This document shows, piece by piece, positions 48,439 through 51,171 of a stretch of DNA of 64,000 bases; within the stretch, counting starts at the first letter, position 1; the number at the start of each line of letters is the position of its first letter. A model generated the notes under the pieces. That model was given only the letters and a program-made list of their open reading frames with translations. It did not search any database and had not been told where the DNA came from. Source of the stretch: Candidatus Latescibacterota bacterium (GTDB taxonomy: Bacteria > Latescibacterota > UBA2968); the NCBI GenBank assembly GCA_965205975.1, contig OZ242195.1:3520001-3584000 (forward strand). Direction: 5' to 3'. Made by a program: the position numbers and the translations under genes.

Positions 48439-49335
48439 CTAATCGCGCGCGCCCCGAATAGGATGAATCTCCCGAAACTTCTGGAACTCCCAATAGGCGT
48501 GGTCTGCCGCGTACCCATTTGGAACCTCCTCTGTCTTATCCAGCCGCTTGTACGCCACACGCACATGGAGCACCTGCGGTTCATCCACGGGAAGCGCGTT
48601 CACCTGCCAGTTAAAATCCCACGCAGGACTACTCTGCCCCGGAACAATTGATCCGCCAGCACCCGAAGGAGAAAGATAGAACCGAAACCCCGGATAATCA
48701 TCCGCCATAATCAAAAACATCATACTGCGAATAATGCCAAAATAAAAGGGATAATCAAACGTATGTCCCGAATCCGAATGGCTGAAGTTCCGCTTCCCAT
48801 CTAAGAATGTCGTAGCTGCATCTCGCCCCCAGGGCTCGCGTTCATCCACCGGCAGATCAGTCGGAAAAATCATCGCCCCCTGTCCGTGAATCGGATTGTA
48901 ATAATAGGTCCACAACCCCTTCTCGATAAAATGAATACCGCCATCCAGCGGAGAATTGACATAGCAACACCAGCCAAAGGAATAGTCTTCCTGTGGACTG
49001 TGCCCCTCTCGGGCCGTGGCAGTCATCTCATAGTCGATATAGTATGGCGGAACCAGTCGATAGACCCCCCGCGTCTCCACAAAATTATTGGCCTCTGACG
49101 CCTCCTTAAACAACTCCACCGCGGTCTCATCTACCCGCCGCACCGCGGGCCGCCTTCCCCGATGGTGACCGAAAAGCAACACCCCATTTCCCTGAGACAC
49201 AGCGGTATGACCGTCTTTGATCGAAGTCAAAAACCAGACCCCGCTGTGCTGATTCTGGCCAGCGCCGTGGTCGGTATCGTCTCCAATAATAGCGCGCAAT
49301 TCGCCAGCAGAGATAAAATAACAAGGCTCAGACAT
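48439..49335 (-). CDS. Hypothetical protein, possibly galactose-mutarotase-like beta-sandwich
   Basis: AAGGAG RBS; long ORF in operon; SPSGAGG...PAWDF motif. Confidence 0.55.
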   Translation of the reverse strand: MSEPCYFISAGELRAIIGDDTDHGAGQNQHSGVWFLTSIKDGHTAVSQGNGVLLFGHHRGRRPAVRRVDETAVELFKEASEANNFVETRGVYRLVPPYYIDYEMTATAREGHSPQEDYSFGWCCYVNSPLDGGIHFIEKGLWTYYYNPIHGQGAMIFPTDLPVDEREPWGRDAATTFLDGKRNFSHSDSGHTFDYPFYFGIIRSMMFLIMADDYPGFRFYLSPSGAGGSIVPGQSSPAWDFNWQVNALPVDEPQVLHVRVAYKRLDKTEEVPNGYAADHAYWEFQKFREIHPIRGARD

Positions 49336-49559
49336 AAGTATTTCTCCTTATCTGTCGATAGCAGACCAAAAGAAAGGCCATCGGCGCGAGAAGCAATACA
49401 AACTGATCGTCAATCTTTTGTCGTTCTCTGTCATTGGTATATAGTAAGGAATACCGCGCATTACCACTGAATGAACGCTATGCAAAATCGGTCTTGATAA
49501 ATTCGAGTCTCAATATATCTTCATTGTATCTACTTAAAGGAGGAAAGATGTGGTCAGAG

Positions 49560-49951
49560 ATAGTTGGGTTTGCCGTTAAGCCGTTTTGTGGGTATATTTC
49601 GCAGGTGCTATCGTAGCGCACACAAAGGCACTCTCTTTTGAGAGTAAACGGTTTCGATGTGGGATAGCACACAAAACCCTCTCTGTGATGTTAGTTGAGA
49701 GGCAGATTTGGCAACAACAGCGGTATGGATTGCGGTTGTGTTGTCGTCAAATCTGATGGGCACAGTTAGGGGCCTGACCTCCCAAACCTGCGGTAGCAAT
49801 CCGCTGCTGTCAACTGCCCTGAAGTCTCGCCACGCAGTGAGCGGTTTAAACCTAAGCCCTTGCTCGGATATGCTGCATTGCCTCCAATGGGTGGGTCAAG
49901 CACCTGGGGTGTGGCAGGGACAAGCCACCTGCTCAGCAGGTGGTGGTTGAC
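49560..49951 (+). ncRNA. Structured non-coding element ending in an IS200/IS605-type right end (TnpB omegaRNA-like scaffold), no tnpB
   Basis: CAAG-CCACCTGC-TCA-GCAGGTGG-TGGT-TGAC at 49921-49951; GTCAAC 49809 complementary to GTTGAC 49946; many stacked hairpins. Confidence 0.65.
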
Positions 49952-49974
49952 AAGCATCAACCTTAAAGACCACC

Positions 49975-51171
49975 ATGCCTGTAATACTCACCATCAACGC
50001 CGGCAGTTCCTCGATTAAATACCAGTGCTTCGACATGCACAGCGAAGAATGCCTCGCAAAAGGACACGTCGAACGGCTGCTCTCTGCATCCGCAGAATTG
50101 TCTTACACGCGGCGGGATGGCGTCACCCATCGCATTCCCTTACCTCAAACCGCTCATGAAGCCGTATTTCAACGCATCTTTGAAATCCTTCTCCACCCGG
50201 AAAAGGGAATCCTCCGCACGCCCGATGAAATCCACGCAGTCGGCCATCGCGTTGTACACGGCGGCAGCCACTTCGCGGCCTCGACCCGGATCACGCCCGA
50301 AGTCGAAAAAACAATCGAACAGTGCGCCCCCCTCGCCCCACTACACAACCCCTTCAACCTGCGCGGAATTCGCGCCTGCCAGACCATACTACCCGACATC
50401 CCACACGTTGCGGTATTCGACACCGCATTCCACCAGACCATCCCGGACTACGCCCACACTTATGCCCTGCCCCACGCGATATCCGAACAATACCAAATCC
50501 GACAATACGGTTTCCACGGCATATCGCATCAATACGTCGCCAGGCGTGCAGCGGAAATTCTCAACTCGCCTTTGAAAACGCTAAAACTGATCACATGCCA
50601 TCTGGGCAACGGCTGTAGCATCACCGCCATCGAAAATGGAAAATCAATCGACACCAGTATGGGTTTCACACCCCTTCAGGGACTCGTAATGGGAACGCGC
50701 AGCGGAGACATCGACCCGGCGATCATCCTCTACCTGATTAGAGAACATCAGATGACGCCGGAGCAAATCGACCGGATGCTCAACCATCAAAGCGGTCTCA
50801 TCGGCGTATCTGGAATCGGATCAGACCTCAGAGATCTAATCGCCGTCCATGAGGAAAATCGGCGTGCGGCACTTGCAATCGACATCTTCTGCTACCGCAT
50901 CCGCCAGTACATCGGGAAATACGCGGCGGTACTCGACGGAATAGACGCGCTCGTATTCACCGCCGGAATAGGGGAAAACGCGCCACTCATACGGGCGCGC
51001 ATCTGTGAAAAACTCGGATTCTTGGGCGTACATCTCAACCGGACAAAAAACGAGGGCAACCCCATGAACGAAGCAATTCATCATGAGACCGCCCCGGTAT
51101 CCGTACTCGTCATTCCCACCAACGAAGAACTGATGATCGCGCGAGACACACTACGTGTGATTAAGAGCTAA
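49975..51171 (+). CDS. ackA: Acetate kinase
   Basis: INAGSSSIK, GHRVVHGG, APLHNP, DTAFH, YGFHG, HLGNG, FTAGIGEN, IPTNEE. Confidence 0.95.
   Translation: MPVILTINAGSSSIKYQCFDMHSEECLAKGHVERLLSASAELSYTRRDGVTHRIPLPQTAHEAVFQRIFEILLHPEKGILRTPDEIHAVGHRVVHGGSHFAASTRITPEVEKTIEQCAPLAPLHNPFNLRGIRACQTILPDIPHVAVFDTAFHQTIPDYAHTYALPHAISEQYQIRQYGFHGISHQYVARRAAEILNSPLKTLKLITCHLGNGCSITAIENGKSIDTSMGFTPLQGLVMGTRSGDIDPAIILYLIREHQMTPEQIDRMLNHQSGLIGVSGIGSDLRDLIAVHEENRRAALAIDIFCYRIRQYIGKYAAVLDGIDALVFTAGIGENAPLIRARICEKLGFLGVHLNRTKNEGNPMNEAIHHETAPVSVLVIPTNEELMIARDTLRVIKS

Follow-up and report, generated by a model that had tools for sequence, protein, structure and literature searches.

A gene-less IS200/IS605-type element beside ackA in a Latescibacterota bacterium carries a conserved RNA motif with suggested homologues inside tnpB genes

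Protein-less members of the IS200/IS605 family, the PATEs, encode omegaRNAs that must be acted on in trans (Meers et al., PMC10055086), and stand-alone omegaRNAs have likewise been described (PMC10691335). For AmaTnpB, a region of the mRNA adjoining RuvC-II (nt 825-875) inhibits cleavage, and pairing of this region with the omegaRNA is suggested in the account of Nety et al. (PMC10278001). The element described here bears on the means by which gene-less IS605 elements gain TnpB, the tnpB mRNA being processed into the guide of its own product. Such elements act as a natural deletion screen, in which the parts retained indicate what the RNA needs, and a piece that appears to come from the middle of the nuclease gene is among the parts retained.

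The locus lies in a window of 64,000 nucleotides, the whole stretch of DNA that was analysed, from the genome of a Candidatus Latescibacterota bacterium (G000). BLAST of this genome and its relatives gave a full element of 436 bp, of IS200/IS605 type and without an ORF. Three copies are present in G000; the two outside the window match positions 49550-49951 at 99% and continue leftwards for another 34 bp, up to a hairpin that stands behind TTCAC. An earlier note on this DNA had placed an element from 49560; an element is indeed there, but it starts at 49550 and full copies reach the 34 bp beyond. Matches were found in 11 of 61 related genomes, and the 13 near-full copies, in 8 genomes of the genus, fall at 98-99%, 88-90% and about 70% identity; the named records with the element carry the title Candidatus Latescibacterota. 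Eleven of 12 full copies, some of which occupy a common site, stand after TTCAC and one after ATCAC. The insertion leaves no target duplication, with the TTCAC motif 5' of the element, and the right-end boundary is sharp across the 13 copies. Full copies have subterminal hairpins at both ends, whereas the window copy lacks the 5' arm of the left one. The left end is common to tnpB-only elements (L042, L046-L048) and to an intact tnpA element in G006 (L215, 88% identity over 49 bp).

In agreement with the earlier note, no tnpA, tnpB or iscB ORF is present at the site. Neither tnpA nor a resolvase-type helper was found in G000, and an IscB search of this genome was empty, as were the controls of that search. 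Of 21 genomes in the genus, 13 contain Y1 transposase matches, and two of the 20 loci have ends that match. We regard it as almost certain that the locus is a 436-bp protein-less IS200/IS605 element composed of left end, promoter, structured RNA and right end, which entered the final codons of a sulfatase gene upstream of ackA, directly behind TTCAC, and that the window copy later lost its left tip. Copies, TAM, empty site and ends common to tnpB and tnpA elements thus bear out the non-autonomous element proposed earlier; further copies, a tnpB with a matching end, covariation support and evidence of transcription, whose absence that note had named as speaking against it, were all found. The window copy, having lost the TAM and the first 34 bp, is probably immobile. 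Elsewhere in the genus, copies of the 90% and the 70% type, each in a different genome (L025 in G016, L014 in G020), share a site inside an opposite-strand gene, which reflects either an old insertion or replacement by homing. Isolated left-end hairpins between A- and T-runs at G000:C1:3068174, 4766344 and 1221000 are terminator-like remnants of the IS200 family.

An exact empty site, with TTCAC joined directly to the right flank of the window copy, is present in two relatives (L200, L207), at the last codons of a sulfatase gene that precedes ackA and that G000 lacks. The acetate kinase gene itself (49975-51171, + strand; Pfam Acetate_kinase) is a neighbour only and starts 23 nt past the element end, the gap given in the earlier note. 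No terminator-like site was found between element and ackA, so read-through is possible. The idea that the element is an exapted ackA leader, also raised in that note, or else neutral debris, draws on the truncation of the window copy, the absence of tnpA from G000 and one RNA contig that continues into ackA. Among the 15 of 20 other genomes of the genus that have ackA, however, none carries the element upstream of it and two show the exact empty site, and the compensatory changes described below extend across 30% divergence and across phyla; this reading is very improbable and, for the element family, largely refuted. Gene order upstream of ackA is highly variable within the genus, and a 298-aa ORF in the window (48439-49335, - strand; no Pfam match) also adjoins ackA in G009. 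A DUF3800-VI RNA scoring over the Rfam gathering threshold (L028:956-1008, - strand) lies close to an element and outside it.

All parts of the window copy are read on the + strand. Outside the element, 49480-49549 holds a promoter-like repeat, a ribosome-binding site (49536-49543) and the start codon of a gene now lost. These are joined to the broken left end and stand where other copies carry the left-end hairpin; in another strain an RNA contig (X14) runs from this type of promoter and ribosome-binding site into different sequence. The promoter-like repeat of about 50 bp occurs at three unrelated places (window 49480-49532, G000:C1:4797004-4797057 and G000:C1:3142557-3142602) and is possibly a shared operator-promoter. 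The element begins with a left-end remnant (49550-49584), the 3' arm of the hairpin and subterminal sequence of the kind shared with tnpB-only and tnpA elements, which is overlapped by an internal sigma70-like promoter (49570-49598; -35 at 49570-49575, -10 at 49593-49598; 9/12 consensus). The -10-like hexamer is retained in the 70%-identical copies, and transcription would start near 49605. There the 5' domain opens (49605-49670), in which the P1 stem (49605-49612 with 49663-49670), a helix with both-sided changes, encloses the conserved motif treated below. Two further hairpins follow (49678-49755), and in the long one (49703-49755) both sides change in 9 of 16 pairs of the helix; from its position and the sequence shared at its base, this hairpin may be an elongated form of the one in the last codons of the cognate tnpB.

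Downstream, the first omegaRNA hairpin (49758-49766 with 49814-49819) contains an inserted two-stem domain, and the region 49758-49819 is homologous to tnpB right ends at G000:C1:937624-937728 and 3181743-3181860. The central omegaRNA stem (49820-49920) has an insertion of about 50 nt which, on comparison of copies and of tnpB genes, is absent from the latter. The right end (49921-49951) consists of the subterminal hairpin and the terminal TTGAC, and, with GTCAAC (49809-49814), the terminal GTTGAC could form a pseudoknot of the kind characteristic of TnpB omegaRNAs. The flanking DNA at 49952-49968 corresponds to the guide and matches the empty insertion site, TTCAC plus flank. The stems listed in the earlier note all lie where it put them (CAAG at 49921, the 8-bp hairpin at 49925-49943, GTTGAC at 49946-49951, GTCAAC at 49809, and the pairings 49605/49663, 49630-49645, 49678-49702 and 49703/49746).

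The element's right end resembles, at 77%, that of a tnpB clade represented by three genes elsewhere in G000. One of these is intact (G000:C1:3181831-3182922) and keeps the three acidic D/E/D motifs; in a cognate-clade tnpB at G000:C1:936893-937728 there are an internal deletion and a frameshift, with the right end intact. A tnpB with a matching right end, for which the earlier note had proposed a search, is thereby found, and an omegaRNA-type right end with the flank as guide is upheld. The frame beginning AVN, taken earlier for a tnpB tail, lies in DNA homologous to such a tail, but the local TnpB clade uses another frame and reads C-Q-Q-A-stop there. Judged by this sequence comparison, the 3' part of the element is the putative omegaRNA of a TnpB clade that has one intact gene at another place in G000. 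A search of G000 for TAM plus target gave nothing for any of the three guides besides their own flanks, as expected if guides aim at empty sites, and the trans-acting guide of the earlier note, in a regulatory role, is not supported. A TldR guide system was also considered and rejected, the cognate TnpB having retained its acidic motifs and the guides having no target beyond their flanks.

With respect to structure, folding of the 392-nt stretch alone gave a z of -2.37 against shuffles for the + strand (reached by 2 of 100 shuffles) and of -1.93 for the - strand, and 49605-49951 gave -2.40. Folding of a single copy is modestly better than chance, and the comparison of diverged copies supports the structure. 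Over seven copies the consensus fold of the + strand reaches -118.5 with both-sided changes in 21 of 111 pairs, and that of the - strand -75.8 with such changes in 11 of 90; the + strand is the structured strand. Behind the promoter, 98.3% of the cells of 94 pairs do pair and 18 pairs change on both sides, a level matched by 0 of 500 shuffles, where the alignment tested is also the one that gave the structure, and its sampling extends to about three lineages. The covariation that the earlier note had asked for is present in these compensatory changes, seen across the 30% divergence of the copies. Rfam gave no match on the stretch at E up to 10, the HEARO and group I intron models proposed there as well included. 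A minus-strand IscB/HEARO reading was rejected on the far worse fold of that strand and the lack of Rfam support, a group I intron on the missing Rfam match and the last base, which is C, and riboswitch look-alikes on the lack of Rfam support.

Transcripts are also indicated. The stretch is contained in 22 runs, of which 15 are recorded as RNA, and contigs over the element occur in sponge metatranscriptomes of three studies (four runs examined): X1 covers 49590-50085, X5 49621-49951 and X6 49646-49909, while X14 has the flanks only, in the empty-site arrangement. The X1 contig extends from the element into ackA. The X5 contig, from another insertion site, continues for 17 nt of flank past the right end and then for at least 13 A's, in one contig of depth 3.8 of a kind that cannot fix ends; an end of this form would be expected of a guide protected by TnpB and then tailed. 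Being assembled contigs, these data carry no strand, start or level and may include DNA carry-over, and the differences in depth (48.7 against 4-12 in X1, 31.4 against 4.8 in X6) were not used as evidence of expression, since the element is multi-copy and only contigs are at hand. One might argue that the structure has its role in single-stranded DNA, while TnpA transposes the element, and not in RNA, as IS200/IS605 elements are described to move as single strands (PMC10055086) and G-T-tolerant pairing would suit either polymer. The RNA contigs, the fixed spacing to the promoter and the absence of the conserved motif from tnpA elements all point the other way, which makes a role as DNA highly improbable.

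The element RNA is headed by a stem/internal-loop motif of about 30 nt (49626-49654), defined by its distribution and covariation: an AGGC/GYUH stem, an internal loop with A opposite (Y)AAACG, and a CUC/GAG stem closed by a hairpin of free length. Motif-bearing elements matched no family in Rfam 15. The motif string was not found among the papers listed in the literature search, although omegaRNA alignments of supplements or subscription journals could contain it, and a term search of 10.1101/2025.02.20.638934 found nothing. A model of the whole 5' domain (R1) matched in 9 of 151 genomes of the phylum, eight in the genus and, as the only one outside it, G133, which belongs to another family of the window's class and carries a variant of the motif.

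Beyond the phylum, a metagenome scan for the two stem-loop halves returned 35 matches, of which 26 were judged members and 9 judged chance by coding context and short stems. The 26 fall in about 8 sequence families, several being duplicate sites, and none contains a tnpB ORF. A complete IS605-type right end lies 190-360 nt downstream in 21 of them (those of L254, L267 and L264 were read individually, the rule-based match being wrong); two of the remainder are cut by a contig end and three are truncated or interrupted. In Chloroflexota, reached via a record titled Caldilineaceae, 2 of 5 pattern matches in 401 genomes are elements, and in one class of this phylum 19 of 22 model matches are, in 7 of 121 genomes; their left end follows TCAC or TCAT and their 3' part matches co-resident tnpB genes. 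A cyanobacterial order yielded one element (L423) in 1 of 150 genomes. The ORF-less elements headed by the motif are otherwise unrelated in sequence, and the distribution of the motif family is patchy. In the alignment of 31 members (A8), pairing holds for 91.7% of the 277 cells, both-sided changes affect 3 of the 9 pairs (21 cells), and none of 500 shuffles attained the covariation score. The motif is mostly invariant, an invariance inflated by the first members having been found by exact pattern. A8 is the count to use, its predecessor A7 having included one false match and two misaligned rows; the structure string of model R2 was mis-registered, so that it worked mainly as a sequence profile, and the register of R3 is nearly right.

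Other searches were negative within their scope. R2 found 3 places in 151 Chloroflexota genomes and 7 in 151 Acidobacteriota genomes, none an element, and a pattern search of 401 cyanobacterial genomes gave 7 matches, all coding chance and 6 of them in ftsH. A pattern for the second stem region gave no match in metagenomes and 24 in GTDB, of which 10 are the element itself (records titled Latescibacterota) and 14 chance. Viral scans returned nothing or chance matches only, and BLAST against plasmids and phages nothing for L015, L260 and L284 and a right-end fragment only for L329. A pseudoknot between the motif loop and downstream GGUU/GUAAA, looked for by eye, was inconsistent.

Several observations adjoin this family. 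ORF-less IS605-type elements without the motif exist on Bacillus cereus-group plasmids (L403:2400-2770 and L404:2380-2766; no Rfam match); at the head of their RNA stand a boxA-like sequence and another conserved motif of stem and internal loop, the latter also present in soil and Chloroflexota members. In a cyanobacterium (G1230), a hairpin resembling the motif (L421:1501-1531, - strand) lies roughly 100 nt past an IS605-type right end and is followed by about 500 nt of non-coding sequence with no clear right end. Directly after another right end lies a non-coding array (L279:1000-1416, + strand) with a period of about 38 nt and about 11 units, in which two short repeats alternate and the variable spacers measure 8-9 nt, a layout that we take to recall TIGR arrays.

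The setting of the motif bears on what it may bind. A -10-like hexamer stands 17-20 nt before it in most distant members, mostly 18 nt in Chloroflexota, and this fixed position, with P1 starting near the predicted +1, would suit a motif that serves a host factor (RNA polymerase, Nus proteins or a nuclease-blocking protein) and protects the untranslated RNA or aids its transcription, TnpB not being the partner. In line with this, several members run on into a boxA-like stretch similar to that of the G000 rRNA operon, and in G1187 a single copy of the motif with the P1 stem but without IS ends (L411:1413-1469, + strand) stands about 65 nt before a glyoxalase-family gene, possibly an exapted or ancestral host use. 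Such a partner is nevertheless quite unlikely: in intact genes the motif is deep in translated sequence and confined to the cognate TnpB clade, neither the rRNA operon nor the other RNAs of G000 were found to contain a copy, and the window element has no clear boxA.

The motif was then seen in the genes themselves. It is absent upstream of intact genes (0 of 47 tnpB or tnpA loci); two weak model matches fell inside tnpB ORFs (E 0.005 and 0.012), in both of which one half of the motif stands on either side of the RuvC-II codons, with an 11-bp stem between the halves. In the intact G000 tnpB, the RuvC-II region is laid out likewise in its minimum-energy fold, about 300 nt upstream of the stop. 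In a first set (43 loci, 24 distinct segments) the motif is present in 8 of 24, with 0 or 1 of 300 synonymous shuffles matching. With 42 further loci and a looser rule (57 loci giving 52 scored segments), it is present in 11 of 31 loci at 36% identity or more to the G000 protein, 0.25 being expected from synonymous shuffles, and in 0 of 21 more distant TnpBs (below 36%); the rule had been loosened after examples were seen, the loci are kin and three segments are frameshifted or misaligned. The inner stems differ in sequence between lineages and yet pair. Model scores inside ORFs are weak (best E 0.76 in a later search), and whole-segment folding in the Latescibacterota clade gave z of -0.6 to -3.0 against synonymous shuffles. 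The full motif is missing in 20 of the 31 cognate-clade loci, several Latescibacterota-clade genes having an altered loop; the intact gene therefore does not require it. In the cyanobacterial genome that holds an element, no motif occurs in the tnpB segments scored (L461, L463, L466, L469 and others).

Overall, these sequence data suggest that the motif at the 5' end of the element and an RNA element located around the RuvC-II codons of tnpB ORFs are homologous. This also bears on the additional folded domain that the earlier note took for a possible new class of non-coding RNA. The domain does not stand alone as such a class: part of it is expanded tnpB-tail and omegaRNA sequence and its conserved core occurs inside tnpB genes as well. 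The core is uncatalogued, which upholds the impression in that note of something undescribed. A position at the RuvC-II codons is also that of the inhibitory region in the AmaTnpB mRNA (PMC10278001), and the motif might accordingly be a negative regulator which binds TnpB or blocks the RNP, damps the nuclease and is kept by gene-less elements to limit self-damage or as a decoy. The AmaTnpB region, however, is proposed in that account to pair with the omegaRNA, whereas the motif is self-paired with covariation, and by eye no complement of its loop was seen in the omegaRNA of the window; we hold such a regulator to be unlikely.

The insertion in the central stem contains a further sequence of possible relevance. 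The 16 nt at 49854-49869 (+ strand), the 3' arm of a bulged fold-back hairpin, match in antisense, at 16/16 positions, the final codons and the start of the omegaRNA in all three cognate tnpB genes of G000, and the six exact 12-mer sites in that genome are the three elements and the three tnpB tails. Since this complement covers the 5' arm of the first omegaRNA hairpin of the tnpB tail, the element might use it to pair with the end of the tnpB mRNA, unfold the helper omegaRNA and capture new TnpB, which would be compatible with the loading model below and apply only to the lineage of the window. Retention of the 12-nt core favours such a hijack: five of the 6 diverged copies listed have it unchanged and the remaining one retains a G-U pair, in contrast to the variable opposite arm. 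On the other hand, the net gain on cofolding with the tnpB tail (-8.5 kcal/mol) is no better than that of 200 shuffles (-7.8 +/- 3.3), the segment is mostly paired in cis, and the 5' arm of the hairpin looks like a decayed sense copy, so that a fold-back duplication explains its origin. Nor did two Chloroflexota elements, compared with 28 tnpB loci, show an antisense match longer than 13 nt. The sampling is of about three lineages. The segment is real, lineage-specific and without thermodynamic support, and its use for capture is doubtful.

Taking the data together, we consider that the element is very probably an internally deleted tnpB gene which retained the 3' omegaRNA and a second RNA element, the one found in intact genes on both sides of the RuvC-II codons, about 300 nt upstream of the stop. 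From established TnpB biology, it is also likely that the intact TnpB of the cognate clade would take up, in trans, the element RNA of about 350 nt with a guide of about 17 nt, and that the loaded TnpB would cut empty sites and so hold the element in place. The second element, the motif, is a candidate TnpB-binding or loading site that gene-less copies must keep, for which the chances seem a little short of even; its near-invariant loop and stem bases suggest a protein partner, and TnpB is the protein common to these elements. In the mRNA, the motif would help the new protein to engage its own transcript, and at the 5' end of a gene-less RNA it would recruit TnpB made elsewhere. A tnpB-derived gene-less element with a TnpB-binding or loading motif is our best overall explanation, to which we give an even chance. 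This loading model leaves the L411 copy and the motif-less boxA-like Bacillus elements unexplained.

It is tempting to go further and speculate that one TnpB clade uses a two-part RNA, the 3' omegaRNA and an element in the RuvC-II codons that loads, licenses or restrains, that gene-less parasites of several phyla moved the latter to the 5' end of a guide RNA in order to capture TnpB in trans, and that the lineage studied here added an antisense arm against the helper mRNA; in its entirety this scheme is tentative and rather improbable. The motif is a concrete fold of about 30 nt and a candidate structure for the mRNA effect adjoining RuvC-II in AmaTnpB. An overlooked RNA signal for the loading or control of the nuclease is suggested, which in TnpB editing tools would be erased by codon optimisation and is omitted from minimal guides.

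Compared with known systems, the element resembles a PATE, as far as these are described (PMC10055086), in its TnpA/TnpB-family ends, the lack of an ORF, insertion after a TAM without duplication, an omegaRNA at the right end and helpers in trans, and a PATE-like protein-less element with an omegaRNA is a kind already described. It differs in an RNA of about 350 nt that opens with a conserved module apparently from inside the tnpB ORF, and in two insertions in the omegaRNA, one of them antisense to the tnpB tail; neither such a 5' module nor the insertions appear in the descriptions consulted of PATEs and stand-alone omegaRNAs (PMC10055086, PMC10691335). With the AmaTnpB region the motif shares a possible function at the RNA level in tnpB coding sequence at the RuvC-II codons; that region, compared here by its description only, is from one ortholog and given without a conserved fold (PMC10278001), whereas the motif is self-paired, covarying and retained on gene-less elements. 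IStrons, which combine a group I intron with IS605/IS607, likewise have a large structured RNA between left end and omegaRNA (PMC13565253). The domain in the window is too short for this, has no group I match in Rfam and starts behind an internal promoter, and one insertion of the family lies antisense within a gene (L025, L014). Group I introns have a terminal G, whereas the element ends in C. In HEARO/IscB omegaRNAs the scaffold is on the strand that begins at the element end, with a 5' guide and an iscB partner, and the minus strand of the window would indeed read GTCAAC-hairpin...GTTGAC with a 5' guide; against this likeness stand the weaker fold of that strand (-75.8 against -118.5), the lack of a HEARO match and ends that match tnpB elements in + orientation. 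What these comparisons suggest to be new is thus an uncatalogued RNA module, with a traceable origin inside a nuclease gene, on a known kind of element.
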